Source: an uncultured virus (IMG/VR IMGVR_UViG_3300045912_000307) (taxonomy: Duplodnaviria > Heunggongvirae > Uroviricota > Caudoviricetes). Taken from it: 20,000 nt of DNA. The number at the start of each line of letters is the position of its first letter. Positions within the stretch are counted from its first letter, which is position 1. The stretch lies in the IMG/VR virus record IMGVR_UViG_3300045912_000307; one strand, 5' to 3'. The notes under the pieces were generated by a model, which did no database searches, was not told where the DNA came from, and was given only the letters and a program-made list of their open reading frames with translations. Made by a program: the position numbers and the translations under genes. Positions 484 through 18,511 of the stretch are shown in pieces.

Positions 484-3400
484 ATGGCGATAATAAGTGG
501 GTTTAAATCAGCTACAGTAGATGATGTTAAGCCGTTTCAGCTACCTATAGATGAAATGGCAAAAGGTTTATTAGCAATTGATACTAGAGCTACTGCAGCA
601 AAAAACGCTTTAGCTACTGCTACAAGTTCTTTAAACATACCCCTTCGTGATAATGTTGAAGATTGGAATCTATTTGATACTATTGTAAAAGAATTTGATC
701 AAGAGAAGAATAAATTAATAGATTCAGTAGGCGGTGATTTTTCTAAGTTAAATATTGCAGATTTACAAAAATTAGCTTTAGATAAAGCACAAGATCATAG
801 ATTTAGACAATTAGTAAGTGCTAAGAAAAATGCTGATGAGTTTCAAGAGCAATTGAATAAAATGCAAGCTGCTGGAAAAGTACCTGTAACTTTTGGTATT
901 AATCCTCTTTATGATTCTCTTTATGATGAAAACGGTAGATTTAGATTTATGAATCAGTATGAAATAATGGAAGATCAAGATATAGAAGAACCTGCACAAA
1001 AAATGTTTAATAATTTAGGTCATAGTCTTGAAGAAGCTATTAAATGGCATCATAGTTCTGCTTTCTTAACTAAAGAGCAGCAAGAACAATTCTGGTATGA
1101 TTTCTGGCAAAAAGACTGGTCTAAAATTAAAGATAATTATCCTAACATTTCTGCTGTTATTAAAGATGGAGCTAAACAATTGATGAATGAACCAGCTGGT
1201 AGAGTTCATCAAAGAAAGCTTTATACTATGTATTCTAAGCAGTTTCCAACTAAGTCCAGACAGGAAGTTGATCAAATGATCGAAGATGACTTTGCTAAAA
1301 TCTTAATAAGAATTGGTAATTCTAGAAGAATAAGAGAATTAAATAAAACAAGTGATAGAAATTATAATCAAAAACCACAACAACCTTCTGTAGGTTCACC
1401 AGGTATGCCTTCTGGTAAAGGATCAAAAGTAGAAGCACCAGAACGTTTGAATATTAAAGCGCAAGAGTTTACATATACAGCTCCTGGATTTAATTACTTA
1501 AATCAAATAAGTCCTGGTGAAGCTTCAAGACATATTCTTAATACTGATATTAATCTTGCTAATTCAGGTATTAACTGGTCTCAATTCGATCCAGCTAACA
1601 TTGGTTCTATTGATAATATTAACTTGTTAGGTCAGTACTTATTAGCTGTACCTACTTTTGATAAAAAGATAGAAGTTAAAGGTCTTGGTGGATTTGATTT
1701 TGCAGGAGGTATTTATCAAGCTGCGCAAAATACAGTAATAATTGGTGGTAATGAAAAAGAAAAATGGAGAAATAATCCTACTGTGTTACCTATGCTTAAA
1801 GGTGATAATTTTGGATCAGCTGTAACATTACCTACTGGATATTTTATGGCAGATGGTAAAAGTTACAATGACATTCTTAATAACAATGATATTGCTTATA
1901 ATACAATTAGACAAGCTATTGAAAATAATCAAACTTATATTCTTGAACAAGATTACGCTAGAGCTTTAGCTAGAGAAGCTGGTGTTACTAGTGATAAAGA
2001 TAAAAACTACGTTGAAACAATGAAAACAGTTTCTGCTATTATTCAGCAACGTAGAAACTTTTCTCAAGGTAATTCAATGTATAATTTTAATATTAATCCT
2101 GATACAGGATTACCAAGTATTGGTGTAGATAAAACTCTTTACACAGTATTACAACTATTAGACGAAGATCGTAAAGAAGTAGATGCTGAAGGTAAACCTA
2201 CTCGTGCTGCACAATTAGCTGAACTACGTTATCAAAAACTAAGTGCTAAGATTAAAGCTGCTGAAGAATTTAGAAACAATTCAGGTAGAGCTTACTTTGA
2301 AAAAGCTGAAGCTACAATGAGAACTAAAGCTGAACAAGCTGCTACTTTTGATATGATTGATGATACTCATAGAGTAGCTGCTGGTATGAAAGAAAATGAA
2401 TACTTTATTATGGGTAATGAAGGAAAGAAAAGTAAACTAGAGGATAAAAAAGAAGCAGATATATTGTATAAAAAAGCTATAGTGACAACTGCTTACGCTA
2501 TGAGTAATTCTTCAATTAGCGGTGTTAGATTTAAACTTGACTATGCTGATTTGTCTGAAAGTACAGATAGTCTAAAAAATAAATTAGGAGATACTATGTT
2601 AAATATTACTGAAAAGATCTTAAGAAGAGAATTTCGTTTAGAAGATTATTTAACAAAAGAAGAAATAGAAGAAGGTACATCTGATCGTCTTTGGAGTTTT
2701 GTATTATCAAAATCATTATTATCTAAGTTTTTTAGTGAAATAGAAATAGAAGAGTTAGAAAAACAGGGAGTTATTAGGGGAGGTTTTTCAAGTATGGCAA
2801 ACCCTATTTTATCAGATATAGCTCACCTGTTATATTACTATTTTGAACCTGATAGTAGCGGTAAGACAATTACTTACACTAACCAAGAAGCTCCTAATGA
2901 ATATAATCAAAAACTTCAATCATCAATTATCGAAAGTTTAAAGCAAAACAAAAGCATATCACCAGCTGCTTTAAGATATTATGAATCACTAACTAAATCT
3001 AAATTAAATAGAGAAGCAGCTTTAACATACAGAATGTTTAATGAAACAGATCCTGATACTAAACACTATGCTGAAAATATTAAAAGTTTAGTTGTTAATA
3101 AAATAATGGCAGATGGTACAGCTGATACTCCTATCTATAGAGCTCATTATAATAGTAACAACACTAAAGTATTAAGAGAACAAGCTCCTATTCACTTGTT
3201 AAAAGATCAGCTTAGAGAGTTATACGATAAGATTAATGAGAAGAATACTACAGGTAAACTACCTTCTTATGAAGATTTTATTAAAGACTCTGTTACAGTA
3301 CTAGGAGTTACATGGGAACCAGGTCAAACAGGTTCTGATGACGGATGGGTAGTTGGTTTTCAAGTAACAATTGATGGTACTAAACACCATTGGCAAATAC

Positions 3401-3924
3401 CAGTATCTCAAACAGAATTACCAATGACTGTAAGAACTATGTTAGGTTTTGATAATCTTGAGTTAAAGTATTCTCCTATTGTCCAACAAAGTTTAAAACA
3501 AAATGGAGGATTATTTTATGATTTAGATTCTAGAGCTGAAGGAAGCAGTCCTATGAGAGTTTTTGTAGCTCATGCTCCTATGACTTTACGAGGTGTAAAT
3601 GGTGATATGGTTTCATTACAAGTAGGTCAAAGATATATTATTGGTTCAGGTAACCCTGCTATAGATCCGACAAACGCTTCAGAAGCTGGTATTCGTGCGT
3701 TTAAAAACGATCATGAAGCCTGGATGTATTATGATAGAAATAAAGCTTACGGTAAAAACTATCATGATTTAGTGTTTTTAAATAGCATATTAAAACAAAT
3801 GGCTTTAGCTAGATCGCCTCAAGAAAAACTAGCTATATCATATAGAATGACTGGTAAATATTTAAGTGAAGAAGCAATTAGAGCATTGATGCTTAAAAAA
3901 GCTGAAGAAAACCGGTCAAAGTAG
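484..3924 (+). CDS. Large putative virion cargo/ejection protein (1146 aa)
   Basis: Long ORF with an AT-rich leader lacking an SD. The N-terminal 'KPFQLPIDEM' plus helical segment resembles crAss-like internal virion proteins (recognised from memory, not searched). It has a P/G/S linker near aa 296-316 and no cysteine seen, and it precedes a muramidase and giant genes. Ends TCA AAG TAG. Confidence 0.6.
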   Translation: MAIISGFKSATVDDVKPFQLPIDEMAKGLLAIDTRATAAKNALATATSSLNIPLRDNVEDWNLFDTIVKEFDQEKNKLIDSVGGDFSKLNIADLQKLALDKAQDHRFRQLVSAKKNADEFQEQLNKMQAAGKVPVTFGINPLYDSLYDENGRFRFMNQYEIMEDQDIEEPAQKMFNNLGHSLEEAIKWHHSSAFLTKEQQEQFWYDFWQKDWSKIKDNYPNISAVIKDGAKQLMNEPAGRVHQRKLYTMYSKQFPTKSRQEVDQMIEDDFAKILIRIGNSRRIRELNKTSDRNYNQKPQQPSVGSPGMPSGKGSKVEAPERLNIKAQEFTYTAPGFNYLNQISPGEASRHILNTDINLANSGINWSQFDPANIGSIDNINLLGQYLLAVPTFDKKIEVKGLGGFDFAGGIYQAAQNTVIIGGNEKEKWRNNPTVLPMLKGDNFGSAVTLPTGYFMADGKSYNDILNNNDIAYNTIRQAIENNQTYILEQDYARALAREAGVTSDKDKNYVETMKTVSAIIQQRRNFSQGNSMYNFNINPDTGLPSIGVDKTLYTVLQLLDEDRKEVDAEGKPTRAAQLAELRYQKLSAKIKAAEEFRNNSGRAYFEKAEATMRTKAEQAATFDMIDDTHRVAAGMKENEYFIMGNEGKKSKLEDKKEADILYKKAIVTTAYAMSNSSISGVRFKLDYADLSESTDSLKNKLGDTMLNITEKILRREFRLEDYLTKEEIEEGTSDRLWSFVLSKSLLSKFFSEIEIEELEKQGVIRGGFSSMANPILSDIAHLLYYYFEPDSSGKTITYTNQEAPNEYNQKLQSSIIESLKQNKSISPAALRYYESLTKSKLNREAALTYRMFNETDPDTKHYAENIKSLVVNKIMADGTADTPIYRAHYNSNNTKVLREQAPIHLLKDQLRELYDKINEKNTTGKLPSYEDFIKDSVTVLGVTWEPGQTGSDDGWVVGFQVTIDGTKHHWQIPVSQTELPMTVRTMLGFDNLELKYSPIVQQSLKQNGGLFYDLDSRAEGSSPMRVFVAHAPMTLRGVNGDMVSLQVGQRYIIGSGNPAIDPTNASEAGIRAFKNDHEAWMYYDRNKAYGKNYHDLVFLNSILKQMALARSPQEKLAISYRMTGKYLSEEAIRALMLKKAEENRSK

Positions 3925-3963
3925 GTGAGCCGCAAGAAAAGATACCTACTGCGGCTGTAGGTG
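3916..3963 (+). other. Candidate -1 programmed ribosomal frameshift signal (A_AAG slip site plus downstream stem/pseudoknot)
   Basis: TCA_AAG_TAG at 3916-3924. Six nt after AAG, AGCCGCA (3928-3934) pairs with TGCGGCT (3950-3956). ACCTAC (3944-3949) is complementary to GTAGGT at both 3921-3926 and 3957-3962. The -1 frame is open from 3906 straight into the muramidase ORF. Confidence 0.65.
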
Positions 3964-3971
3964 AAGAAGAA

Positions 3972-4688
3972 ATGGTTAAAAATACAGCTAGAAAATATAA
4001 ACCTTTAATTAGAACATTTGTAAATGAAGAAGGATTACCTAAAGAAGCTGAAGATATAATGACTGTACTGATTAGTAACGAATCAGGCGGTCAATTAATA
4101 AACCCTAAAACAGGTGTTATTCATTTAAGATTTGAAGGGCATATTTTCCAACAAAAAATGGTAGAATTAAAAGCTAATGAATTAATGAGACAAGGTGTTG
4201 CTCCGGATAAAGCGATGAAAGCTGCTCAAGATTACGTATTAAGTTTAAAAAACAGTGATAAAAATGCTTTATTTTATGATAAAGTAGATCAACATCCAGG
4301 TACTTCAGGACAAGCAGAATTAAATAGATTAAAGAAAGCTTATGAGCTTAATCCTGAAGCTGCTGCTATGGCTACAGGATTAGGTTTAACTGCTATTCAA
4401 GGGGTTAATTATAAGTTATTAGGATTTAATACTGGTAAAGAATTATTAGATTATGTACTTTCTAATCCTAAAGATGAAGATTTTATTAGATGGCAAGCCA
4501 GAATAATAAAAAATAATATTGATTACTTTAAATCAAAATACAAAAGAAATCCAACTGAAGAAGAAATAGTAGCAATGTATCAAGCAGGACCTGGTAATCC
4601 TAATTTATATCAAGATAAAGGTAATAAAATTGCTCAAGACTATATTGAAAAATATAGAAGACGCAAAGCATATATAAGCGGTTATTAA
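3972..4688 (+). CDS. N-acetylmuramidase-like peptidoglycan hydrolase (DUF3380/PF11860-like, lysozyme fold); frame open from 3906
   Basis: Motifs ESGG (candidate catalytic Glu at 4080-4082), LRFEGHIF and AAAMATGLGLTAIQGVNYKLLGF parallel the DUF3380 consensus ES.G...ILFERHIF...SASWGLFQIMGFNY..LG. The C-terminal 'AMYQAGPG...DY' resembles lysozyme-fold YNxG motifs. Confidence 0.75.
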   Translation: MVKNTARKYKPLIRTFVNEEGLPKEAEDIMTVLISNESGGQLINPKTGVIHLRFEGHIFQQKMVELKANELMRQGVAPDKAMKAAQDYVLSLKNSDKNALFYDKVDQHPGTSGQAELNRLKKAYELNPEAAAMATGLGLTAIQGVNYKLLGFNTGKELLDYVLSNPKDEDFIRWQARIIKNNIDYFKSKYKRNPTEEEIVAMYQAGPGNPNLYQDKGNKIAQDYIEKYRRRKAYISGY

Positions 4689-4702
4689 TAAATATTTTAA
4701 AC

Positions 4703-7700
4703 ATGAATGAAGATATACTCAATAAGATAGCTGAAGACCAGAAAGAATATGATCAGTTTCTTAAGAGTCAACAAGAGAAATTACAAGGTTCTATTCCTCC
4801 TCCATCTTCTACAGGAGAAATAGGTAATGTAGGTAGTAATGCTCCTTTTATACCTAAAGTACCTAAAGAAGTAACGTATCAACAATCTGTTAATAATTAC
4901 TTCAATAGCACTTCTATTGAAGATCAAATGAAAGAACTTGAAGATGTTCTAGCTAAGAAAAAAGAGTTAGAACAATTACAAGAAATGTATAAAGAAGATA
5001 AATGGGGTGTTGATTGGAAAAAAAGATATGAAGATGAAGGATCTGGTCCTTCATCAGCTAGTACTATATTTGATTCTGATTATGCTGAATACGATAGATT
5101 ACGTGTTACTGATAGAAGAGATCCTGAATATTTACAAGAACAATTAGCAGCTAATCAAAGTACTAGTGAGCAATTAGGAAGAGGTCTTAATAAGTTGTTT
5201 TGGAATACATTGTATCAAACTGTAGGTGGTATAGGTGCAATGTTTGATTTTGAAGACCATTTTAATCAAGATGATGAAGTAGGTAACTGGTTAACTGATT
5301 GGGCAAATAAGCAACAACAAGCTGTTGATGATGCTAACAAAATATATAAATCAAACAATAGATCATGGTCTTCATTAGCATGGTGGATAGATAATGGTGT
5401 TAATCTAGCATCTAGTATGTTATCATTTGCAGCGCAAGGTGCTGCTTTAGGTTATGCTCTATCACCTCTTAAGTTTGTACAGTTTTTAAGTAAAGGTAAA
5501 AAGTTAGCTGAGACAGCTGCTGCAGCTGAAAAAAGTGGTAAGCTTTTAAAAGCTGCTCAAAAATTTGAAGATGGTGCTAAAACTTTTATTACATCTGCTA
5601 TGCTAAATCAAGCAGAATCTATTATGAGTGCTACTGATGTTTACAGTAGAACTTATAAAGAAGCTATTGATAGAGGTTATTCTGATGAATATGCTAGAAA
5701 AGTTGCTGCAGCATCTGCTACACAAACTATTGCTGTTAATAAAGCTAACATTATGCTTAATTTAACCTCAGCTAATATGTTTACTAGAGGTTTTAAATCA
5801 GTAGCAGATGCTTATAAACAAAGCTTATGGAAACAAAGTTTAAAAGAAGCTATACAAGAATCTGCTGAAGAGCTTATTAATATGAAAGCTGAAAAAGCAG
5901 GTGAAGAAATTGCAAAAACTTACATGGATAACTCTTTCTTTAGTGGTCCTGATAAAATTCAAATTGGTGATTTAAAAATAACTCCTGAAACAGCAAGATA
6001 TAATGCACAAGCTGAAGCTAATAAAACAGATGTAAGATATAAAGCACAAGACCTAGGAATATTTACTCCTATGGTTCAGTCTATGTATAATAGTAAAACA
6101 GGAAATTTTAATCCGTTTTATAATATAGAAGCTGGTGAAGCATTAGAAACAGTATTTTGGGGTGCTTTAGGTGGAGCAGGACAAACTGCTATTGTTAAAG
6201 GCGGATTAGATAAGCTTGGATCATCTGAAGGATTTCTTTCTAAAATACCAGGTGTAGGTGCTTTAAATGAAAAACTATTTGGTAGTGAAATACATAAAGT
6301 AGCTGAAGAAGATGTTTACGATCCTTACAGTGGTACTTTGTTATTTAGAAAAGGAGAACCTATGTATGAAACTCAAAATGCTACATACAAAGAAAATCAA
6401 GCTTATCAAGAAGGAGATATTATCACTGAAGATATAAAAGATAAAGATGGTAATGTAATTCTTAAGGTAGAAAAAGATGATCAAGGTAAGCCTATTCCTA
6501 CTTCTATAACAGAGGAACAAGCTGCTAATCTTGCTAAAGCTAATGTTTATAAACATAAAGCTGGTGATGTTATTACAAGAGAAGTTTACGATGAAAATGG
6601 TGTACTTAAAGAAGTTATTACAGCTAAAGAATTAAAGTTAGATGAGAAAGGTCAACCTATTCTTGTTAAAGAAGTAGGTAAAGACGGTAAACCACGTAAG
6701 TATAGTAAAAGTGAGATGGAAGAAATTAACTATCAAAGACAGCTAGCTAAAGAATCAGAAATGAAAAGTCAAGCTGTAGCTCAAGCAAAACTTATTGCTT
6801 CAGCAGAACTTAAAAGAGCTGTTGACGATGTTAATACACAACTTGAAGAATTAAGAAGTAGAAACTGGGAAAATAAAGAAGATCAAAAAGATTTCTTATT
6901 AACTAAGTTATCTAAAAATATAGCAGCTGTAGAATTAGCTACAGAAGGTAATACTAATATTACTACTGAAATGCTTGAAGCTAAAGAAAAAGAAATAAGA
7001 GCTAAGCTTGAAGATCCTAGTTTTGATTTAAATGAGTTAAATGCTATTCAAACTAAATACGCTGCTTTATCTCACTATAATACTACTCTTAATGCAATTG
7101 ATAATGGTCAAGAAGAAATGTTATTAAGAATATGGGATGATATTGGTAAAATGACTAAAGAACAAGCAGCTGAAAAAGGTTTACCTGATAATTATGCTGA
7201 AGTAGCAGAACAACAAAAAGCTGAAATAAAAAGAATATCTAACATTTACTACAGTAATAGAATGAAAAAAGGTTATGCTGTAGGTAGAGCTGCTACAATG
7301 AATAGATTAAGATATGAACAAAATGAAAAAATACTTAGTAAGATTAACGATGATATAGATAAAAGACATGATGAAGCTTTTCAAAGATACTTAAAGTACA
7401 ATAAAGTGCCTAAAGAATTAGAACTAGAGCACAGAGAGAAGTTTAATGAAATGATTCAAAAACGTAGAAAACTTGATGAAGAATTAGAAAATGATCCTGA
7501 ACTTAATAAAATAGCTAAAGAAATTGAAGATCTTAAAAAGAAAAGAAATGAATTAGAAGAAAAGATTAAACAGGAAGCAGAGAATAGAAAAAAGAAAGAA
7601 GATGTAGCACTTAAAGAAAAACAAATTCAAGAAGCTAAAGCTAAATTGCTAGATGATCTTAAAAAAGCTTTAGCTGCAGAATTAGCTAGACCACCCGAAG

Positions 7701-10700
7701 AACAAGATAAAGAAAAGATTAATAATTTAAAAAATGATATTAAAATTGCTGAAGAAGCAGGTCGTCCTGCTAGTGCAGCTAGAGCTGAAAAATTAAAAGA
7801 ATTAAAAGATAAATTGCAACAAGAAAAAGCTAAACCTGAAGAACAACAAGATAAAGATCTTATCAATGATTTAAATGAAAGTATTGATATACTAGAAGCT
7901 TTAGAAAAAGAAGAACAAATTGAAAAAAGAACTATTAAAACTATTAAAGAAAGATCTAAAAAAATTAAAGAAGAATTAGATGAGATACAAGAACAAATTA
8001 AAGTATTAGAAGCAGAAAGTGAAGCTACTAGATCTGAAGAAGATAATAATAAATTAAAAGAACTTAAGACTAAAGAAAAAGCTTTAAAAAGAACTAAAAG
8101 AATATTAGATAATTTATCTAAGATATATGTTGAAGCTAGTCAAGAAAACGTTGATATTAATAATCTAGCTAAAGAACTAGCTAAAGTTAACCAACAAATT
8201 CAAGCTAAAAATGCAGAAAAATTTAATAAAGAAACTAGTATTAAAAATGCAGCTGATAGACAGTTAAAAGCTTTAGGTTTACCTCCTCATATGCACAAAT
8301 TTGCTCAAGATGTAGATAAAGCTTTTTATGCTAGAAAGAAAATTATTAAAGAACAAGATTACTTAAATAAAGTATTTCAAAGATTAGATACTGATGGTAT
8401 GAAAGTAGAACAAGAAAGACAATATCGTCAGTATCAAAATAGAATGAGAAGTGTAGCTTATGTACAACAATTAAATACTTTAAGAAGATTTCAAGCAGCT
8501 GGTGGAGGTATTGCTTATTATCCTCCTATTACTTTTCAACAAGAAACAGGTAGAATGAATGAAGATGGTACTCCTGAAACTAAAACAGTTAAAGGTACTC
8601 TTCAAACTCCTATTATTATGAAAATTGTAACTAAAGATGGTAAGTTGTATATGCAACCTACTAATCTTAATACAATGACAATGACTACTCAACAAGCTGC
8701 TATATATGAAAAAGTAGTAATACCAGGTAGAGAACAAGAATTTTATGCTACACTAGAAGCTCTTAATGCTTTAAAGAAAGAGTTTAAAGATTATCAGAAA
8801 AGCATTGAAGAAAGTACTCAAGATGAAAAAGAACGTAAAAGAGTTTTCTTTTCTGATGAACTAGTTAAATCTTATCAAGAAAATATTAAAGAATTACAAG
8901 AAAGACTTAATTCTCTTAAGTTATTTAGAGTATCTACAGCAAAAGAAGTTGAAGGTAGTAATTTTGAAGGTATAGCTATTGTAACTCCTTCTAGTACTAG
9001 AGTATCTCAATTACTTGTTACTGATGGAATGACTTTTCGTAAGAAAGTTAAAAGTGAAGATGGTAAATACACTGAACAAGATGTACCTGTTGAAGGTAAT
9101 GGTATTAAAGCCGGTACTACAATTACTTATACTTATACTAATATTAATAATGAAACAGTAACTAAAGAGTATAAGTTAAGAAGAGGTAAAAGAGCTGGTG
9201 ATAAAGAGATCATGGTAGAAAGTGAAGAATCTAGTATACTAATACCTGTTAGTTATAATGTAGTAATGAGTTCTTCACCTGTTAATTCTAAAGAAAAGAA
9301 AAAATTACTCAGAGAACAAGAAGCAATAGAAGCTATGACTATGCGTCAAGCTAGAATATTGCAAACTCAATATGCTTTAAATCAAAGATTAATAGAGATT
9401 GATAAAGAGCAAAGAGATAAAATAGAAGAAGATCAAAGAATTAGTGAATCTATTGAAGCTCTTTTAAAGATTTATAATGATTATATAATTAACTATGACT
9501 TTACAGCTTCAGATGAAGAACTACAAAAATTAGATGAAGAACTAAAGAAAACTTATATAGCTATTAAACAAGCTTTTATAAAGTATGGTGATGCTACTTT
9601 AAAGTCTTCTTTTGATACTTATATTAAAGAGTTAGACGCTCTTACTGCTGATATTAAAGAAATGAATGCTTTAATTAGAGCAGGAGCATCTCACATAAGA
9701 ACTATAAATGGTACTATTAAAAGTATTGAAGATAGACAAGCTAAAATTAAAGAAGAAAAGATAAAGCTTGAAGAATTACAACTAGAAGCTGAAATTCAAT
9801 TAGAAGAGTACGAAAAGAATTTACAAAAGAATTCAAAACTAATAGAGCAATTAACTAAAGACAGAGCAAATTTAGAAGCAAGAATTGCAGAAATAGAGCA
9901 ATCAGCTAAAGGAGCTAAATCACAAAAAGCAAAAGCAACTATTAGTGCTTTTAAAAAGCAAATAGACGCTATTGATGAACAATTAAATGAACTATACACT
10001 AAAAATGTTATTGAAGGTTTTGAAGCATCTGAACAAGTAAAACAATATGAAAAAGCTGTTGTTGAATTAGAGATAGAGTATTCTAAACTAGAAAGTGAAA
10101 AAGAAAAAGCTAAAATTACTTTAGGTGAATTAAAAGAGTCTATTAAAAAGAATCAAAAGAAAAAAGCAGAAATTGCTAAAGAAAGAGCTGAAAAATCTAA
10201 AGAATTAGATGCTTTAAAAGAAATAGGTACTACTTCTAACTATTTAGCTGTGCAAGAAAGTTTTAATAAAAACTTTTTAGCTTATGAAAAACAAATTGAA
10301 AATGCTAACAACACTGTAAGAGAATTACAGTTAAGTATTACTAGAGCTGAGCAAATATTAACAGTAGTTGATTTAGATAGAGCTTATCAAAACTTTTATG
10401 TTAAAGGTATTGAAGCTATTAATGCTCGTGTTAAAAAAGCTATAGAAAACGGAGATACTACAGTTGATGGTATTGATATTTCTGAAATAAAAATGATCAA
10501 TGCCATGACAAAAAGTATGATAGAAAGACTTAACAAGAAAAAAGAAGAAATAATTAAAATGGAAGGATTAGCTGCTACTAAACAAAAAGAATTACATAGA
10601 ACTAATAAAAAAGATCCTAAATATCCTAAATTAAAACAAGAATTATCTGATCTAAGAGCTGAGATTAAAGCTGCTCGTGCTGAAGCAAAAAATATAAAAA

Positions 10701-13700
10701 ATTTAATAGAAGAGAATAGACAAGAAATAGATAAGAAAATAAAAGAAAAAATTACTCTTAATAAAGAAGATTTCTTTAAAGAAATTATGAAAACATCTGG
10801 AGTAACTCAAAACATGATTAATCTTTATAATGAAGGAAAATTAGATGAGTTAAAGAAAGCTATGTTTCCAAAAATAGTAGAGGAATTTGTAACTGAAGAT
10901 GGAGATGTTGAAGTAGTAGCTGAATCAGATGAAGAATATAATGAAAGATTAAGTACTATCAATATACATGAACATGAAAACTTTGGAAAACTAAGCGTAT
11001 TTGCTATGTTACAACAAGAAGATATCCCTGATACTGTAGTTACAGAAGGTATTAGTGATATGAAAGCTTTTGTCAATGATCTTGTTGATAAAGTTAAAAA
11101 CAGAATTAATCAAAAAATAGATCTTGAAAATAAACTTAAAGAAGAATTAGAAACTAAAAAAGAAGAATGGATAAAAGCTAATCCTGCTTTCTTATTTATT
11201 AAAGAAAAAGATCTTGAAAAGTTCATAATTACTGAAGAAACTAAAGAAAAACTTGGTACTCAAATAAGAAATGCTTATAATTTATTTTCACAAACTGTTG
11301 ATATTTTAGCTAAACGTAAGAAAGCGATACAAGAAAGAATAGAAGAACTTGATAGAGAAGTAAATGGACCTGGTGGTATTGTTGAACAATTTGCAAGACT
11401 TACTGCTTTACAAGAAAGTTTAGCAGAAGATGCTAAATTGTATAAAGAAGGTAAAGCAGAAGAAGAGTTTTATAAAAAATATACTATTAAGAATCAAGCT
11501 GAACTCTATGTTTCTTTAGCTAAAGATATTGAAGAGTATAATAAGAAACTAGAAATGTTAAAAGCTGACTTAGCTAATCATGAAAAAGAAATTCAAATTC
11601 TTGAAGCTTTAATGAGTTCATTAGATCCTCAAGAACAACAAGTTGAATACGATAATGCTAAAGCTAAAGTAGAAGCTCTTAATGAAGCTATTAATAAGAT
11701 CAATAGTGAGTATGAAAATATTAATAGTGATTTAGAAAAAGCTAAACTACAAAGATTTGATATTGCTTTACTGTATTCTTTTATACCTGAAGAAACAAGA
11801 ATGCTTCATGAAAAAAGAGAATTTGTTAACAATAACAGACAAGTTTTAGATGATCTAATTGCTCAAAGATCTGAATTATATCAAAAAAGAGCTGCTTTAG
11901 AAAACGTATATACTAAAGTTAGAAAAGGTAGAAAGACTTTAGTAGTAACTACTAAAGATCGCATAGCAAGAAATAAAGAGTTATTAAATCAGCTTATTGA
12001 AGAACTAAAGCAACAAGTATCATTAGCAAACGATGTTAGTCTTAGTGTTAATTTAAAAGAACAAGTTAGTAGTACTATTAATGACTTAGAAAAACAAATA
12101 GCTCTCAATGAAAAAGCTAGTTTAAAACTACTTAATGAAATTGATAAATTAAAATTAAGTGAATTAACAGAACAAAATATAGAGTTAATAGCTTCTAAAA
12201 AACAAGCTTTTAATGAGATTAATGCTAAACTAGAAACACTCAAAAGTGATTTAAATATCTATAAGAAAATGTTAGAATTACCAATGGGTGATATTAGCAT
12301 TAGTAACAGAGAAGCTATTATAAAAAAGATAACTGGGCAAAGTGCTGATGAAATTAAATTAAATGATAGCGAAACTACTGTAGCAAACTTTATTGAAACT
12401 TTAAAAGGTTTTATTGAATCTGATGAAAGAAACTTAGAATTATATAATCAGCAAATACAAGAGCTAGATGAGAAGTTAAAAGAAGTAGGTAAAAACTTAG
12501 TTTTAACTACTACTCGTAATGAAGTTGATCCTATTTCTAGTGCTAGAACTGCTGAAAGAATTATAAAGAGTAAATCAGCAATAGCTTTATATAAAAACAA
12601 GTTAGAAAAAGAACAAGCTAAACTAGAAGCATTAGAAAAAGAGTTAGATGCTAAGAAAAAAGAACAAGAAGCAAATAGAGAAGCTTTAAAAGACGCTAAT
12701 CAAAAACCTCAAAGTACTCCTTCTGAAAAGCTATTAAAAGATAAAGAAGTAAAAGAAGCTAATGATAAAGTAACATTAACTAAGAGAGAACTAGCAATAC
12801 TATATGGTAAAATAAAAACTACTAAAAGAAATATTGCTAAATACAGAAAAGATTTAATAAAAGCTACTGAAAACTATAATTCATTCTTTAATGTTACTTT
12901 ACAAGAAGAAGCTATACAAGCTCAAAATCTCTTGTTAATTCAAGATATAGCTAGAATTAGTGGAGGAGAATTGTACGATGGTTTTAACTACTCTGGTAGA
13001 AATGATGCTAATGAATTACAACCAGGTGGTAGCAGATCAAGTACTTTTGCTTTAGAAGGTTATCATGCTAAATCTAAAGACACTATTTTTGCTACTGCTA
13101 ATGCGTTTACTTTATGGGATGGTACAAGTAAAGTGTATAATGAAAAAGGTATTCCTATTGTTACTAAGGACATTCATCAAGTTAATTTCTTAAATGCTTT
13201 AGCTGATCTTGCTGATAACAATTTTAGTGAGTTTAATGAAAACCATGTGTTACAAGTAGTAAATCCTACATCACTTGGTAGTGAAGATCCTTCTATTAAC
13301 TACTTATCTAAACTTCCTTTCTATGATGAAGATGGTACTAGTACTATGACTATTGGTGAAATGAATAAAAAAGAAGCTAAAAATTTAGGTTTATATGTAG
13401 TTATTGCTAATAAAAAAGGTGAATGGTTATATAAAATGGAAGATGGATCTTATGAATATCATAGTATTCCACCAGATAAAGGTATGCCTATTTTTACAAC
13501 ATTTGCCAGTGAAAAACGAGTAGATTACTTAGATAATAATGCTTTTAAGAAAAAGATTGAAGAGTTAACGGGTTCTAAAACAATACAAGGAGTTCATATA
13601 ATTAACGGTGTTAAATATGATTTAAGTACTAAAGAAAAAGAATTAGAATTTTATAAAGACCCAAATCATCCGCTTAAAAAAGCTTTACGAGTTATTATTA

Positions 13701-16700
13701 AAAATGAACTTACAGCTTTCAGGAATAGAGTAATACATGAAAGCATGGTAGGTAATAAAGTATTTACTAAAATAGAACAAACAAGAGTAGGAGGTTTATT
13801 AAGAAGACAAAAACAAAATTTAGTAGTTGATACTAAAGATGGTGCTAAAACACTTAGAGTAGCTGATGTAAGACCTGTAAACATTCACAATATAAAAGAA
13901 GTAACTGTAGATAAACGATCTGATAAAAAAGGTATGGTTATCGTAACAGATGATAAAGGTACAGAAATAGATGTTTACGGTAGAAAAATGAATAGTAATG
14001 AAATAGTAGCAGCTATGTTTTTAATAGCTCATGCTACATCTCATGAAGAAGGATTAAAAAAATTAAACAATAGTATTATCATTAATGATGTAGAATATCC
14101 TGTACTAAATACTAAAAATAATCCAAATGGTTTACTTAATAGTTTAATGCACTGGACAGGTAAACCTGGAGAAGATATTCCTAAAACAGCTATATGGGTT
14201 GAAAAAGGTGCTATCAATTTTGCTTTTGGTAATAAGACTTCTTTTATAACTATTAACAATCTTAAAAAATTAGTTCAGTTTATAAAAGACAACATTCAAG
14301 ATATTACTAACGAAAATGGAGAAATTGATTTGAACTTGTTGAATGATAGAGTTAAAAATCTACAAGATAATAGAGGTATGCAACAATTCATTGCTTATAT
14401 GCAAAATAAGCGTGTAAATGTTGTAGCAGATAAATTAAATAAAAATGAGCCATATTTTAAACCTGTTATAGAAAATGGTAATCTATCTGTTAAAGAGTAT
14501 CCAAGTTATAAAGAATATCTTATCAATGAAGTTCTTGTTACAGATGTGATACCTGTTAGTGAATTACAAGATCAAGGATTAACAACTAATAAAGGTAACA
14601 GCTATATTACGTTTAAAGGTTTATCTACAAGTCCTGATATGAAAAATACAGTTAAGATAACTGTTGAAAAATATATAAATAAAGAAGGTATTCCATTCCA
14701 AAATGGAGAAACAGTCATAGTTAATAGAACTTTGAAAGATGGAGAAGTAGAACAATTCCAATCAATGTTAGTATTAAAAGACGGTCGTTGGTTTATTTAT
14801 CATAATAATGAGTATATTGATGTTGCTAAAGATCCAAATCTTTCTATAGAAAAATATACTGAAGAAGATGAAGAAGATGTAATTGCAAATCAAAATTCTG
14901 ATTCTCCGTCTCCTAAGTCTGAGTTAAAACCATTCGGTAAACTTAAATTTAATGAAAGAGCTGAAGCTATAGATAAAGCTACGCCTATAAAGTTTCAAAT
15001 AAATAATCAGAATACTATAGAAGTTGATGGAGCTAAAATAGTATTTAAAACTTCACAAGAAAATATCCAAAAGTTTATAGAAACAGGAGAAGGTTTATCT
15101 GATAAAGAAGTAGTAGCTGAAGTAAATCAAAAAACTACACATAATGGAAAAACTGTAAATACTAGTTATAAGTTAATTTATGATTCTGGTAGTAAATTAA
15201 TTATAATAGATCCTACTAGTGTTACAGTAGATGGTAAAGATTTTACTAAGTTCAGAGAAGAAAATGCTAACATTGTTAGTTTAGATGACTTAAATAAAAA
15301 CTTAACGTTTAGTGATGGGTCAGTGTATAACCTAAATGATAATGTTATTCCAGGTGTAGCTGGTTTTGATTTGTATTTAAAACAGCAAATTAAACAAGCT
15401 CTTGAAAACATTGCTAAAAAATATAATAAAACTTATGAAGAAATACTAAGCTTTGCTAAGTCTATTAATAATGTTGAAAAAGATAATTTAGATAATTTAA
15501 TTAAAAACACTAAACCTGAAGATTATCAATTAGTACAAGATATACTTAGAATACTAAGAGGTGATGATATTAACGTTGGTTTAAAACTATTATTAGCAGA
15601 TAGCAAAGGTAATTCTTTATACGGTTTTAATCCTAATACTTTAGATTCTACAGCTTTACCTAGTGTACTTAGACCTTCGATTCTTACTTTAGGATTTAGC
15701 GAAGATTCTAAAGCTCAATATACTGTTCCTACTAAAAATGAATTAGTAGCGCGTATATCTTACGCTTTAAGTAACAATTTAGGTTATTTTGAAGCTACTG
15801 AAACATCTATAGGTAATGCTACTGATATAACTAAGGAAAGAGGTTCTGTAATACTAGATGATGGTGCTTTAGAATATCAAGCTAGCGATTCTATGGTCTT
15901 TTATGATCCTAATCAAAACAGAACTAAAGTAGCTATTCCTCCTTCTGTGTATGTAATATATGCTACAGCAGTTAGTACTGGTGATCCTAAAATCAGATTA
16001 TCAAACACAATGGATAATCTAATTAGTGTTTTAAATAACGCTAGACATGGTATAGTTACTAAAGCAGATATTAATGAAAAGTTAAGAGAAGTATTCAAAA
16101 CTCAAGATGACAGTAAAACAAAAAATGATAAAGAAAAAGAGAATGCTCAAACTAAAGAATCTGAAGTTAAAGAAGTTAATATAGTTCCTTCTAAGTTTGA
16201 ATTTAGAGATTTAAATAGTGTTGATGCTCAAATCTTAGACAATCCTATTGATGCTCTATTAAATGAGCTAAATAATGATCAAGAAAGCTTTGTAGCTATT
16301 CGTAAACAAACTTCTAATAAAACTAGTAAAGATCCTGTTACAATAGAAGATTTAATAGAGTTAGATAATTTAATTAAAAATGACAAAATAACTGATCCTT
16401 TAGATAAAGCTAATGTATTAGCAATTTTAGATAAGTTTAAATCTCTAGATTTATCTAATATGACACTTAGTTCTGAATTTGATATTAGTGAAAATAGTGA
16501 AGATATAGAACTGTTAAGAAACTTATTTGAAGCTTATTATAGAGATAATGAGTATATAAATGATAAAGAAAATAAGATAGAAGAAATATTAGAAGCAATT
16601 AATGAACTAAGAGCAATATTAAGCAAAGAAAACAACTCTGTAGCTACTATAACAACAACTGATGATAATGTAAATGTAATTATTGACGGTAAAGTTTATG

Positions 16701-18511
16701 AAACTAAGTTTGTATTAAACAAAGATGTAAATCTTCTTAAAGCATCTGCTACAAATCCTAACAGTGAAACTAACAAGAAAATCATCGAGACTATTGAAAA
16801 CTGGACTGATGAAGTAGATCCTAATAAACTTAACATTTCAGTAAGTAGTGATGGATTTATTACTGCTACTCATCCTATAACTGTTACAAAAGCTAATAAA
16901 GCTGAACAAAAAGAAGGTATAATAAATTCTAATTTTGAATTAGTATTCATATTTGATTCTAAAGGTAACTTGATTAGTATAAAAGAAGAGTCTTTAAAAC
17001 TGAATTTAGCTGGTAAAAATAAACAGCTAGAGATAAAAGAAGAAACTGATACTCCTACATTAATTAAGTTTATAGAAAAAAATAAAAAGAATTATGAAAA
17101 ACTATTAGAAAAAGTAAATAAATCTAATTTAAATACTAATCCTCTTAATGCTCTTAAAGACAAAATTCAAACAGCTAAAGAAGTAAAAGTAGGATCTTTG
17201 TTTAAAGATTCAATTGAAGATTTTACTAAGACTTTAAAACCTTTTGATAAAGACCAAGCTTTAAATAATTTGTTAGTAACTGCTCCGCCTCAAACAAAAG
17301 TATTAATTTATAGTAAAACAGAAGGTAAAAAAACAGTAGAACAAAATAAGACTAATAGGAAAGATTCTAAAAAAGAAGAAACTACTGAAAATCAATCTAA
17401 GCTAGAATTAAAAGATTCTAAAGATCCTAATTTTACAGTTAAAGAATCAGCATTAAAAGATTCTCATAAAGAAGTATTAAAACTATTAGTAGGAGCTTTA
17501 TTTGCTAATGAAGGTAAAGTGAACTTGACTATAGTTAAAAATATAACTAATGAAAATATAGAAGGAACAGTTGATTTATCTAATCCTAATAACCCTGTTA
17601 TTAGACTTTATAAACCTGAAAACGTTAGTAGTAGTAATGATTTAGATGATAATGAATTATTTGTTGTTGCTCATGAGTTAATACATATTGCTGATTATAG
17701 AAAAAATAAAAGCTTTGATTTAGATCCAGAAAGATATGCTGATGTCATACTATTTAGAAATATAGCTTTAACTTCTTTTTTAACAAATACACCAGAAGGT
17801 AGTATAGATGATATGAGAGAAGTTGCTTATGCTTTACTGGGTAAAAGAAAACAAGATGGTAAAATTGCTAATGAGCATGATTTGATGTTATTAAAAGAAT
17901 TATTAGAGACTGTTAGCTTACAAGAGTTTTTAGAATACGTTGAAAAGAACTATAGTAATAACGAGTTTATTCCTAATATGATGAATAAAAAGTTCTTTAC
18001 TAAGTTCTTATTAGATACTAAACTAGACTCCAATTTCACTCAATCAGATTTAGGAAAATTATGGGCAGGTTATCCTTTTACGCAATCTCAGTTAGATTTA
18101 ATTAAAGCTGAAAATGCTGGTTCAATTAAATATGGTCAAGGATCTTTGTTTAATATAATATACAGTGCATTAATGGCTGTATTACAAAGATTAGTAGGTA
18201 GTGAACATCCTTTTAACAGTAACAGAAGTATATTACAAAAAGCTGTAGTATCATATACGTTTGCTACTATGAATGTTAAACCTGTTATAACTAAATCTAA
18301 GAAAGAAAAAGTAGATCCTGTAATTCAAGCTGAAAAAGAGTTTTTAAAACAACACTCTAATTATACTAATCAAAAAGTTGATAGCATTAAGACTATGATT
18401 CAAAATAAATCTAATGGTTTAAGTTCATTGCCTGATGAAGAGATTATTAATTTTATAAAACATCAAATCTCAACCAATGATAAGAGTATAATAACTTATG
18501 AGTGTATTTAA
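4703..18511 (+). CDS. Giant virion cargo/ejection polyprotein (4602 aa) with membrane-like N-terminal segments, long coiled coils and a C-terminal zincin-like domain
   Basis: Uninterrupted 13.8-kb ORF. Gly/Ala-rich hydrophobic stretches at about 5200-6270, E/K/L-rich heptad-like sequence at about 7300-12900, and HELIH at 17672-17686. Size and organisation resemble giant genes of the crAss-like RNAP/cargo cluster. Confidence 0.75.
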   Translation: MNEDILNKIAEDQKEYDQFLKSQQEKLQGSIPPPSSTGEIGNVGSNAPFIPKVPKEVTYQQSVNNYFNSTSIEDQMKELEDVLAKKKELEQLQEMYKEDKWGVDWKKRYEDEGSGPSSASTIFDSDYAEYDRLRVTDRRDPEYLQEQLAANQSTSEQLGRGLNKLFWNTLYQTVGGIGAMFDFEDHFNQDDEVGNWLTDWANKQQQAVDDANKIYKSNNRSWSSLAWWIDNGVNLASSMLSFAAQGAALGYALSPLKFVQFLSKGKKLAETAAAAEKSGKLLKAAQKFEDGAKTFITSAMLNQAESIMSATDVYSRTYKEAIDRGYSDEYARKVAAASATQTIAVNKANIMLNLTSANMFTRGFKSVADAYKQSLWKQSLKEAIQESAEELINMKAEKAGEEIAKTYMDNSFFSGPDKIQIGDLKITPETARYNAQAEANKTDVRYKAQDLGIFTPMVQSMYNSKTGNFNPFYNIEAGEALETVFWGALGGAGQTAIVKGGLDKLGSSEGFLSKIPGVGALNEKLFGSEIHKVAEEDVYDPYSGTLLFRKGEPMYETQNATYKENQAYQEGDIITEDIKDKDGNVILKVEKDDQGKPIPTSITEEQAANLAKANVYKHKAGDVITREVYDENGVLKEVITAKELKLDEKGQPILVKEVGKDGKPRKYSKSEMEEINYQRQLAKESEMKSQAVAQAKLIASAELKRAVDDVNTQLEELRSRNWENKEDQKDFLLTKLSKNIAAVELATEGNTNITTEMLEAKEKEIRAKLEDPSFDLNELNAIQTKYAALSHYNTTLNAIDNGQEEMLLRIWDDIGKMTKEQAAEKGLPDNYAEVAEQQKAEIKRISNIYYSNRMKKGYAVGRAATMNRLRYEQNEKILSKINDDIDKRHDEAFQRYLKYNKVPKELELEHREKFNEMIQKRRKLDEELENDPELNKIAKEIEDLKKKRNELEEKIKQEAENRKKKEDVALKEKQIQEAKAKLLDDLKKALAAELARPPEEQDKEKINNLKNDIKIAEEAGRPASAARAEKLKELKDKLQQEKAKPEEQQDKDLINDLNESIDILEALEKEEQIEKRTIKTIKERSKKIKEELDEIQEQIKVLEAESEATRSEEDNNKLKELKTKEKALKRTKRILDNLSKIYVEASQENVDINNLAKELAKVNQQIQAKNAEKFNKETSIKNAADRQLKALGLPPHMHKFAQDVDKAFYARKKIIKEQDYLNKVFQRLDTDGMKVEQERQYRQYQNRMRSVAYVQQLNTLRRFQAAGGGIAYYPPITFQQETGRMNEDGTPETKTVKGTLQTPIIMKIVTKDGKLYMQPTNLNTMTMTTQQAAIYEKVVIPGREQEFYATLEALNALKKEFKDYQKSIEESTQDEKERKRVFFSDELVKSYQENIKELQERLNSLKLFRVSTAKEVEGSNFEGIAIVTPSSTRVSQLLVTDGMTFRKKVKSEDGKYTEQDVPVEGNGIKAGTTITYTYTNINNETVTKEYKLRRGKRAGDKEIMVESEESSILIPVSYNVVMSSSPVNSKEKKKLLREQEAIEAMTMRQARILQTQYALNQRLIEIDKEQRDKIEEDQRISESIEALLKIYNDYIINYDFTASDEELQKLDEELKKTYIAIKQAFIKYGDATLKSSFDTYIKELDALTADIKEMNALIRAGASHIRTINGTIKSIEDRQAKIKEEKIKLEELQLEAEIQLEEYEKNLQKNSKLIEQLTKDRANLEARIAEIEQSAKGAKSQKAKATISAFKKQIDAIDEQLNELYTKNVIEGFEASEQVKQYEKAVVELEIEYSKLESEKEKAKITLGELKESIKKNQKKKAEIAKERAEKSKELDALKEIGTTSNYLAVQESFNKNFLAYEKQIENANNTVRELQLSITRAEQILTVVDLDRAYQNFYVKGIEAINARVKKAIENGDTTVDGIDISEIKMINAMTKSMIERLNKKKEEIIKMEGLAATKQKELHRTNKKDPKYPKLKQELSDLRAEIKAARAEAKNIKNLIEENRQEIDKKIKEKITLNKEDFFKEIMKTSGVTQNMINLYNEGKLDELKKAMFPKIVEEFVTEDGDVEVVAESDEEYNERLSTINIHEHENFGKLSVFAMLQQEDIPDTVVTEGISDMKAFVNDLVDKVKNRINQKIDLENKLKEELETKKEEWIKANPAFLFIKEKDLEKFIITEETKEKLGTQIRNAYNLFSQTVDILAKRKKAIQERIEELDREVNGPGGIVEQFARLTALQESLAEDAKLYKEGKAEEEFYKKYTIKNQAELYVSLAKDIEEYNKKLEMLKADLANHEKEIQILEALMSSLDPQEQQVEYDNAKAKVEALNEAINKINSEYENINSDLEKAKLQRFDIALLYSFIPEETRMLHEKREFVNNNRQVLDDLIAQRSELYQKRAALENVYTKVRKGRKTLVVTTKDRIARNKELLNQLIEELKQQVSLANDVSLSVNLKEQVSSTINDLEKQIALNEKASLKLLNEIDKLKLSELTEQNIELIASKKQAFNEINAKLETLKSDLNIYKKMLELPMGDISISNREAIIKKITGQSADEIKLNDSETTVANFIETLKGFIESDERNLELYNQQIQELDEKLKEVGKNLVLTTTRNEVDPISSARTAERIIKSKSAIALYKNKLEKEQAKLEALEKELDAKKKEQEANREALKDANQKPQSTPSEKLLKDKEVKEANDKVTLTKRELAILYGKIKTTKRNIAKYRKDLIKATENYNSFFNVTLQEEAIQAQNLLLIQDIARISGGELYDGFNYSGRNDANELQPGGSRSSTFALEGYHAKSKDTIFATANAFTLWDGTSKVYNEKGIPIVTKDIHQVNFLNALADLADNNFSEFNENHVLQVVNPTSLGSEDPSINYLSKLPFYDEDGTSTMTIGEMNKKEAKNLGLYVVIANKKGEWLYKMEDGSYEYHSIPPDKGMPIFTTFASEKRVDYLDNNAFKKKIEELTGSKTIQGVHIINGVKYDLSTKEKELEFYKDPNHPLKKALRVIIKNELTAFRNRVIHESMVGNKVFTKIEQTRVGGLLRRQKQNLVVDTKDGAKTLRVADVRPVNIHNIKEVTVDKRSDKKGMVIVTDDKGTEIDVYGRKMNSNEIVAAMFLIAHATSHEEGLKKLNNSIIINDVEYPVLNTKNNPNGLLNSLMHWTGKPGEDIPKTAIWVEKGAINFAFGNKTSFITINNLKKLVQFIKDNIQDITNENGEIDLNLLNDRVKNLQDNRGMQQFIAYMQNKRVNVVADKLNKNEPYFKPVIENGNLSVKEYPSYKEYLINEVLVTDVIPVSELQDQGLTTNKGNSYITFKGLSTSPDMKNTVKITVEKYINKEGIPFQNGETVIVNRTLKDGEVEQFQSMLVLKDGRWFIYHNNEYIDVAKDPNLSIEKYTEEDEEDVIANQNSDSPSPKSELKPFGKLKFNERAEAIDKATPIKFQINNQNTIEVDGAKIVFKTSQENIQKFIETGEGLSDKEVVAEVNQKTTHNGKTVNTSYKLIYDSGSKLIIIDPTSVTVDGKDFTKFREENANIVSLDDLNKNLTFSDGSVYNLNDNVIPGVAGFDLYLKQQIKQALENIAKKYNKTYEEILSFAKSINNVEKDNLDNLIKNTKPEDYQLVQDILRILRGDDINVGLKLLLADSKGNSLYGFNPNTLDSTALPSVLRPSILTLGFSEDSKAQYTVPTKNELVARISYALSNNLGYFEATETSIGNATDITKERGSVILDDGALEYQASDSMVFYDPNQNRTKVAIPPSVYVIYATAVSTGDPKIRLSNTMDNLISVLNNARHGIVTKADINEKLREVFKTQDDSKTKNDKEKENAQTKESEVKEVNIVPSKFEFRDLNSVDAQILDNPIDALLNELNNDQESFVAIRKQTSNKTSKDPVTIEDLIELDNLIKNDKITDPLDKANVLAILDKFKSLDLSNMTLSSEFDISENSEDIELLRNLFEAYYRDNEYINDKENKIEEILEAINELRAILSKENNSVATITTTDDNVNVIIDGKVYETKFVLNKDVNLLKASATNPNSETNKKIIETIENWTDEVDPNKLNISVSSDGFITATHPITVTKANKAEQKEGIINSNFELVFIFDSKGNLISIKEESLKLNLAGKNKQLEIKEETDTPTLIKFIEKNKKNYEKLLEKVNKSNLNTNPLNALKDKIQTAKEVKVGSLFKDSIEDFTKTLKPFDKDQALNNLLVTAPPQTKVLIYSKTEGKKTVEQNKTNRKDSKKEETTENQSKLELKDSKDPNFTVKESALKDSHKEVLKLLVGALFANEGKVNLTIVKNITNENIEGTVDLSNPNNPVIRLYKPENVSSSNDLDDNELFVVAHELIHIADYRKNKSFDLDPERYADVILFRNIALTSFLTNTPEGSIDDMREVAYALLGKRKQDGKIANEHDLMLLKELLETVSLQEFLEYVEKNYSNNEFIPNMMNKKFFTKFLLDTKLDSNFTQSDLGKLWAGYPFTQSQLDLIKAENAGSIKYGQGSLFNIIYSALMAVLQRLVGSEHPFNSNRSILQKAVVSYTFATMNVKPVITKSKKEKVDPVIQAEKEFLKQHSNYTNQKVDSIKTMIQNKSNGLSSLPDEEIINFIKHQISTNDKSIITYECI
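17657..17695 (+). other. HExxH zinc metallopeptidase (zincin) motif within the giant protein
   Basis: LFVVAHELIHIAD, preceded by the beta-like 'IEGTVDLS...VIRLY' and followed downstream by candidate third-ligand Glu residues (QEFLEY, NEFIPN). Confidence 0.65.

Follow-up and report, generated by a model that had tools for sequence, protein, structure and literature searches.

A candidate programmed -1 ribosomal frameshift between the gene of a large cargo-type protein and a muramidase gene in an uncultured phage

Results and Discussion

The window analyzed here is a stretch of 20,000 nucleotides from the IMG/VR record IMGVR_UViG_3300045912_000307, which represents an uncultured Caudoviricetes phage of a hot-spring or microbial-mat environment. 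It carries a gene for a large protein of 1146 amino acids (ORF1) that is followed, after a 47-nt gap, by a gene predicted to encode an N-acetylmuramidase (ORF2; coordinates in Table 1). Our analysis leans, if only slightly, towards a programmed -1 ribosomal frameshift where ORF1 ends, which would fuse the muramidase to some copies of the ORF1 protein. An earlier note on this DNA had proposed such a fusion. In its favor are the anatomy of the junction, the coding character of the gap, the point at which relatives of ORF1 are fused to a hydrolase, and the linker and stem seen in a muramidase relative (P0004); against it stand a weak tetramer as slip site and a usable ATG at 3972. The slip itself, like its efficiency, the virion location of the product and the conservation of the signal in relatives, is something that we infer.

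Anatomy of the ORF1-ORF2 junction

The 3' end of ORF1 reads GAA AAC CGG TCA AAG TAG. In the -1 frame, a TGA at 3903-3905 is followed by a frame that stays open from 3906 through 4688, spelling RKPVKVGEPQEKIPTAAVGEEE before it runs into the ATG of ORF2 at 3972. The ending TCA AAG TAG and the stop-free -1 frame described in the earlier note were thereby confirmed from the sequence. Both frames are open over a zone of 16 nt (3906-3921), and the tetramer A_AAG (3918-3921) lies inside it. The slip proposed is that the Lys codon AAG at 3919-3921 re-pairs as AAA at 3918-3920, with TAG as the next codon. The junction combines a slippery motif (a tetramer) within the overlap zone, an open -1 frame that encodes a domain, and an RNA structure 6 nt downstream. 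The linker of the -1 product is predicted to yield the peptides VGEPQEK and IPTAAVGEEEMVK.

If the frameshift occurs, most ribosomes would still terminate at the TAG at 3922 and release the 1146-aa protein. With Lys-tRNA on AAG 3919-3921, a stop codon next and, 6 nt further on, a hairpin (hairpin B) at the mRNA entrance, a minority would slip back to AAA 3918-3920, go on to read GTA GGT GAG and, through a 17-residue acidic linker, enter the muramidase. Their product would have about 1401 aa. As ORF1 is probably a virion or cargo-type protein (see below), the fusion would arm a fraction of its copies with a cell-wall-cutting domain. Recoding would in this way do what most relatives of ORF1 do by carrying an in-frame C-terminal peptidase, and the ATG at 3972 may additionally yield free muramidase.

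The short A runs at 3908-3911 and 3918-3920 make the junction a place where an indel matters. Part of the stretch is contained in 10 hot-spring or microbial-mat metagenome runs, four of which were compared with the window. A contig from another sample (run X3) covers 3865-4043 with 0 differences and 0 gaps, and a contig of run X4 covers 3842-3992 with one substitution and 0 gaps. The indel check called for in the earlier note was thus clean in contigs of low depth (2.5-2.7), which are not the raw reads that it had named. The sole indel reported in 3300-4800 across the compared runs is at position 4695, in a true intergenic spacer. An assembly error at the junction is unlikely.

The metagenome runs also revealed strain variation around ORF2. 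A second strain, ~7% divergent over the muramidase gene (4061-4797), is present in runs X4 and X6, with 14 differences in 183 nt, 25 in 353 and 11 in 177. The 1-nt deletion at 4695, in the ORF2-ORF3 spacer, belongs to this strain, whose contigs do not span the junction. In the Logan assembly of run X1, the likely source run, a 16-kb contig starts at 3951, inside the hairpin, and no X1 sequence was aligned upstream of it; this start could reflect a strain variant or a graph branch near 3920-3950.

Coding signature of the gap between the two genes

To score the gap we used a codon-usage log-odds measure trained on the 6485 codons of the window. The 16 codons of 3924-3971 score +14.19 in the muramidase frame, which is the 86th percentile of true in-frame windows, as against -26.6 and -37.6 in the other two frames, values typical of off-frames. 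Neither the 20,000 shuffles nor the 7,743 stop-free ones included a single sequence that reached +14.19. Base composition was addressed with 150 G+C-rich coding windows, where the in-frame mean was 14.4 and the off-frames never attained the score of the gap. The G+C content of 3925-3971 is 48.9%, compared with 17.1% and 7.1% for the other gaps (379-483 and 4689-4702, respectively), and only 0.19% of 47-nt coding windows are equally G+C-rich; the earlier description of the gap as a GC-rich island in an AT-rich window is correct.

The muramidase frame contains no ATG, GTG or TTG between the stop codon at 3903-3905 and 3972. This lack of a start, together with the codon signature, suggests that the linker codons are translated now, or were until very recently, by ribosomes that started elsewhere. 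A 47-nt "intergenic gap" that has intact codon usage and no start could be used as a cheap general flag of recoding, and calls for caution in annotation.

Two other ways of reaching the muramidase from ORF1 were considered and rejected. Read-through of the TAG fails since the ORF1 frame meets a second TAG after 11 codons and is the frame that scores -26.6, and transcriptional slippage fails since the A runs are merely 3-4 nt long. No promoter-like site was found on the + strand of the gap.

Slip motif and downstream hairpin

Of the Z_ZZN tetramers, A_AAG works best in E. coli, and IS elements make use of it (PMC5009743, PMC4066793); the sites of cdd and IS1222 likewise end in _AAG behind a P-site codon that does not re-pair (PMC5009743). 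The claim that A_AAG followed by a structure is a known class of bacterial -1 slip signal is backed by these two sources.

The 7-bp stem AGCCGCA/TGCGGCT (stem B) is present as described in the earlier note and begins 6 nt past A_AAG. The 35 nt from 3925 fold with -11.0 kcal/mol, which places them in the top 0.44% of 6653 such windows, and only 1.8% of 2000 composition-matched shuffles fold as stably. When the in-frame A_AAG sites were ranked by the stability of the 35 nt downstream, the junction site came 1st of 43, the next one having -8.5 kcal/mol.

The region holds a further element, an exact 8-nt direct repeat, GTAGGTGA, at 3921-3928 and 3957-3964, which encodes VGE twice in the linker. 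The sequence TACCTAC (3943-3949) lies between the two copies and can pair with either, so that three mutually exclusive hairpins, A (-7.7 kcal/mol), B (-11.0) and C (-7.5), can be drawn; they may possibly act as a switch. A pseudoknot of B with C or of A with B was rejected, as reasoning from the coordinates leaves loops of 0 nt, which is sterically implausible. An Rfam search returned a chance match only. Read on the minus strand, hairpin C and the T-rich run behind it score like a terminator.

The muramidase and its relative P0004

ORF2 matches the N-acetylmuramidase family PF11860 over residues 34-162 with 48.3 bits (cutoff 22.3, E 1.9e-12), and is thus predicted to be an N-acetylmuramidase; the score lies above the gathering threshold, in agreement with the identity given to this ORF before. 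Matches to the PHROG endolysin families 1224 and 2860 and, weakly, to the endolysin 7rum (E 0.006) were also obtained.

One close relative was found, P0004, a protein of 252 aa from a 7,342-bp contig that is 64% identical to ORF2 and starts 15 residues ahead of the shared MVKN. Its N-terminal peptide aligns to the linker of our window without gaps, with 5/14 identities and a BLOSUM62 score of 25 (composition-preserving shuffles: p = 0.003 for the score, 0.028 for the identities). When P0004 was back-translated on stem B, the 3/3 pairs that are fixed by the amino acids were forced to form and the other four were possible through free third positions; one of the three, 3933:3951, has G-C in place of C-G (Q to E, A to P). 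All eight slid stem registers (8/8) contain 1-4 impossible pairs. Among 2079 registers of 7 bp, 16 are without an impossible pair, and ~5 of these have at least three forced pairs. Both the linker peptide and the stem register hence appear conserved in P0004, as far as a protein can tell, and the stem, if present there, would bury the start codon chosen by the gene caller.

Further relatives of the pair were scarce. Phages in GenBank gave no match to ORF1 or the muramidase by megablast or tblastn, and a word-based search for a longer, fused muramidase found none, a weak negative. Scans of viral contigs returned a single locus (L001), an unrelated free-standing muramidase of 182 aa from another phage; scans of metagenome contigs also returned one (L002), a contig ending after 117 residues of an ORF1 relative; and scans of genome contigs returned nothing.

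Relatives of ORF1 usually end in a peptidoglycan hydrolase

To gain insight into the role of ORF1, its relatives were collected with phmmer. The search gave 41 matches, 38 of them at E <= 1e-10, with a conserved N-terminus MAIISG..VDDVKPFELP; as the proteins were clustered at 50%, the search may have missed relatives that share 50-90% identity with ORF1. Twenty-eight relatives exceed 1000 aa, and most of these are longer than ORF1. A local HMM, built from the C-terminal 230 residues of six relatives, detected a C-terminal LAS/Peptidase_M15-like domain, in frame, in 18/28 of them, the 12 fused relatives outside the model-building six having E values from 3.5e-46 to 8.6e-20. The domain shows the pattern SxHxxGxAxD...HxH, which is typical of LAS zinc peptidases. 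Pfam identified Peptidase_M15_2 (PF05951) in the relative P0005 and, among 10 members, M15_2 in three and M15_3 in two.

P0005 (1342 aa) is 29% identical to ORF1 over ORF1 residues 1-1128 (E 1.2e-96), and the end of ORF1 is the exact point where P0005 and P0007 go on into a linker and the peptidase. ORF1 departs from the majority architecture in that it stops before the peptidase, as do 10/28 of the long relatives, which are also without one; P0022, P0024 and P0034 end at the same boundary. In the unfused P0022, P0024, P0031, P0034, P0008 and P0041, the last residues ahead of the stop, behind an acidic tail, are ...GK or ...KK. Read from protein, such ends are compatible with the heptamers G_GGA_AAG or A_AAA_AAG. 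A terminal K as a family-wide slip signal was rejected, since it occurs in 8/11 unfused clusters and 10/18 fused ones and does not discriminate between them.

No Pfam or PHROG model covers the ORF1 family, and PHROGs had no match for ORF1. A word-based search for close ORF1 relatives of 630-2006 aa found none, a weak negative. An AlphaFold (AF2) model of ORF1, made from an alignment of 38 sequences, reached a pLDDT of 77.6 and a pTM of 0.64. Compared with the PDB by sequence and by fold, ORF1 gave nothing significant; against BFVD its model gave eight matches at E <= 0.001 (best 1.2e-7), with low TM-scores (0.13-0.36). The proteins matched are uncharacterized or structural ones, and at least six of the eight are from crAss-like phages by name, one being a 593-aa "Structural protein" of Cellulophaga phage phi14:2. 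Sequence comparison by hhalign with g068, g069 and g070 of phi14:2 returned probabilities of only 0.07, 0.04 and 0.3. The Pfam family crAss_CARGO2 (PF25712) had no match at E <= 1 in 10 members; an Atlas lead to crAss_CARGO2 has a score of 0.90.

As the links at the sequence level fail, the description "crAss-like cargo-type protein" is drawn from fold and synteny. We infer that ORF1 serves an environmental crAss-like phage as a virion or cargo-type protein. Of the two labels in the earlier note, "crAss-like" has gained the predicted-fold matches in BFVD and lacks a sequence-family match, while "ejection protein" names a putative role that is likewise without a sequence-family match. Independently of any frameshift, the analysis uncovered a family of large proteins with crAss-like predicted folds that usually ends in a peptidoglycan hydrolase. 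Such an ending gives a testable function, the breaching of the wall during ejection, to crassvirus-type proteins that are largely uncharacterized.

Weighing the frameshift against other explanations

Several points weigh against a programmed shift. The P-site codon TCA cannot re-pair in the -1 frame, so the slip site is only a tetramer, and A_AAG is not avoided, with 43/110 AAG codons preceded by A, as expected at 43% third-position A. In E. coli, tetramers without a stimulator shift at background level (0.147% vs 0.112%), and those with the IS3 pseudoknot reach at most 5.6% (PMC4066793). By analogy, a shift at the ORF1 end would be expected to be of low efficiency. As to the RNA, stem B has just 7 bp, and the fold of the wider 76 nt falls short of significance (z = -1.19, 25/200 shuffles as good), its minimum-energy structure adopting the competing stem A and not B. 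Hairpin C is kept in P0004 as well (3/4 fixed pairs, two swapped), so that the structure signal marks this spot and not uniquely B; the conservation of the stem, moreover, is read from one protein in a gapless alignment, on amino acids only. On the side of the proteins, no fused ORF1-muramidase protein was found among those searched, and Pfam at E <= 0.001 recognizes the fused peptidase in just 1/28 of the long relatives.

The main rival explanation is that ORF1 and ORF2 are two ordinary genes, with the muramidase made only from ATG 3972 and its translation maybe coupled to that of ORF1. We regard this as a serious contender of clearly lower probability than the frameshift. The gap would then be a recent relic, either of an earlier N-terminal extension that has lost its start codon (M in P0004, GAG here) or of an earlier in-frame fusion, and the hairpin would serve mRNA stability or processing or the control of muramidase initiation. 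ATG 3972 does have an A-rich leader with AGGTG 9 nt upstream, unlike the starts at 484, 4703 and 18511, whose leaders are A+T-rich and without a Shine-Dalgarno motif; the difference that the earlier note had seen between the leader at 3972 and those at 484 and 4703 holds. The region -15..+5 of this start is as accessible as that of the other three (unpaired probability 0.50 vs 0.40-0.64), and M-3972 is conserved as M in P0004. P0004 itself was called from its own start codon and may come from a gene that stands alone and carries an N-terminal extension, A_AAG is common and tetramer sites are weak, and the 10/28 long relatives without a fused hydrolase make a split architecture normal in the ORF1 family. 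Two ordinary genes, however, do not readily account for a codon signature that is still fully intact in the gap. With the other gaps at 7-17% G+C, decay would have to be very recent, and yet the linker remains similar in P0004, where the enzyme is just 64% identical and where the proposed start codon would lie buried in the inferred stem. It would also have to be coincidence that the offset is -1, that the frame is open across the stop, that A_AAG comes directly before it and that the hairpin 6 nt further on is the best of 43.

A broken fusion or an assembly artefact, in which the ancestral gene was an in-frame ORF1-linker-muramidase and a 1-nt indel in 3906-3921 is an error or was fixed without programmed slipping, would agree with the in-frame hydrolase fusions of most relatives, with the coding-like linker and with the A runs. 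It is nevertheless improbable, given that the contigs of X3, which is from another sample, and of X4 carry the stretch without gaps, and that P0004, although diverged, is likewise unfused at 252 aa. No fused muramidase turned up among longer proteins, which is weak evidence, and a recent accident would leave the apparently conserved hairpin register unexplained. Ribosomal bypassing, which would resemble that of T4 gene 60, is the least probable of the explanations that we set out, and a very distant one. Peptidyl-tRNA-Lys would leave AAG 3919-3921 in hairpin A and land on AAG 3939-3941, skipping 17 nt; UAG comes after the take-off codon, inside a stem, and the muramidase frame has no downstream AAG other than 3939-3941. 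The codons to be skipped (VGEPQE), however, show the coding signature, some of their residues are conserved in P0004, and a single -1 slip is simpler. Readings other than these four have, taken together, only a slight chance.

The programmed frameshift, if it takes place in this phage, might also be one instance of a family trait, in which a cargo-type protein gains a hydrolase either by in-frame fusion (18/28) or by a -1 slip on a terminal Lys. The lytic domain would be dosed onto a subset of the ejected proteins, and the muramidase made from its own ATG could double as endolysin. We consider this broader proposal doubtful. Were it true, recoding and a wall-degrading function would each be assigned to crassvirus-type cargo proteins for the first time.

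Gene context

The window holds five genes on the same strand (Table 1) and no tRNA genes. The HNH endonuclease gene and ORF1 are separated by an A+T-rich hairpin of 13 bp with TTTTAGTTAT behind it (404-447), which looks like a terminator, so that ORF1 probably opens a new transcription unit, which probably continues through ORF2 and ORF3. The giant ORF3 had no match in Pfam, PHROG or PDB; Atlas gave leads only, to the "large polyvalent protein" domains LPD14 (0.86) and LPD22 (0.82). Its similarity to gp66 and gp67 of phi14:2 was not significant, and it is thus not shown to be an RNA polymerase. We treat ORF3 as context, a candidate member of a module of very large proteins like those beside the cargo genes of crAss-like phages. 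Its stop codon overlaps the most likely start of the next gene in TAATG (18509-18513).

Table 1. Genes and junction elements in the 20,000-nt window
Feature	Position	Strand	Remarks
HNH/endonuclease VII-type gene, 5'-cut	1-378	+	PHROG 3322, E 1.3e-28; directly upstream of structural module
ORF1, large protein of 1146 aa with 41 detected relatives	484..3924	+	ORF list, relatives, predicted fold
Candidate shift site A_AAG (3918-3921) and 0-frame stop TAG (3922-3924)	3918..3924	+	
Stop-free stretch of the -1 frame (RKPVKVGEPQEKIPTAAVGEEE), no ATG/GTG/TTG	3906..3971	+	
Hairpin B, candidate stimulator: 7-bp stem 3928-3934 / 3950-3956, 15-nt loop, -11.0 kcal/mol	3928..3956	+	
Competing weaker hairpins A (3920-3927 / 3943-3950) and C (3944-3949 / 3957-3962)	3920..3962	+	
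ORF2, predicted N-acetylmuramidase of 238 aa (PF11860)	3972..4688	+	
ORF3, giant protein of 4602 aa, 14 nt after ORF2	4703..18511	+	no family match
3'-cut ORF, most likely start ATG 18511	18511..	+	listed start GTG 18502, same frame

Comparison with known systems

The candidate site resembles the A_AAG sites of the IS3 family (IS1222, G_CGA_AAG) and of B. subtilis cdd (A_CGA_AAG), where a Z_ZZN site also ends in AAG and the P-site codon does not re-pair (PMC5009743, PMC4066793). The likeness extends to a shift near the 0-frame stop, a structure a few nucleotides downstream and a C-terminal extension or fusion as the outcome. Unlike those systems, our window has a simple 7-bp hairpin, with no pseudoknot and no upstream stimulator resembling a Shine-Dalgarno sequence, and its site lies in a virion-type gene of a phage, where the IS3 family has a transposase.

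In phages, the -1 frameshifts of T7 gene 10A/10B and of the lambda G/GT tail chaperone lengthen a structural or assembly protein close to its stop. They make two products from one start, the minor and longer form adding a C-terminal module at a ratio fixed by the shift. What T7 and lambda add are structural or chaperone segments, whereas the segment here would be an enzyme with a usable start of its own, on a carrier of the crAss-like cargo type. The T7 gene 10 frameshift site is mentioned in PMC5009743, and tail chaperone cases in PMC10885494. If real, the event described here would add an ejected protein that carries an enzyme to the tail chaperones and the capsid or tail decorations for which phages use programmed frameshifting. 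The earlier note knew of no described frameshift for a crAss-like ejection-protein/lysin pair, and the excerpted literature likewise describes none that joins a crassvirus cargo gene to a lysin.

ORF1 resembles the crassvirus cargo proteins (PhiCrAss001 gp45/gp46; phi14:2 g068-g070) in predicted fold and in its position upstream of giant ORFs; the cargo concept is that of PMC10172136. A comparison of gene order showed that g068-g070 of phi14:2, structural proteins verified by mass spectrometry, are encoded just upstream of the giant virion RNA-polymerase genes. The source differs, being a hot spring or microbial mat here and not gut or sea. A peptidoglycan hydrolase in crassvirus cargo proteins had 0 mentions in the excerpts, those of PMC10172136 included.

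The outcome proposed for ORF1 is closest to that of the tail-associated lysin Tal in the lactococcal phages Tuc2009 and TP901-1, whose virions contain two forms of a large structural protein, one with a peptidoglycan hydrolase at its C-terminus and one lacking it, a mixture that broadens infection success (PMC6115969). The Tal forms arise by proteolytic removal of a domain; here a domain would be added by recoding, and there is no sequence relationship between the two. Relatives of the P0005 type are homologous across ORF1 and share the arrangement of linker and hydrolase, but have a peptidase in frame, whereas the ORF1-ORF2 pair has a muramidase, of a fold class unrelated to the peptidase, in the -1 frame. 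If real, the frameshift would thus represent a third route, besides in-frame fusion and proteolytic trimming, to virions that mix "armed" and "unarmed" copies of the same protein.

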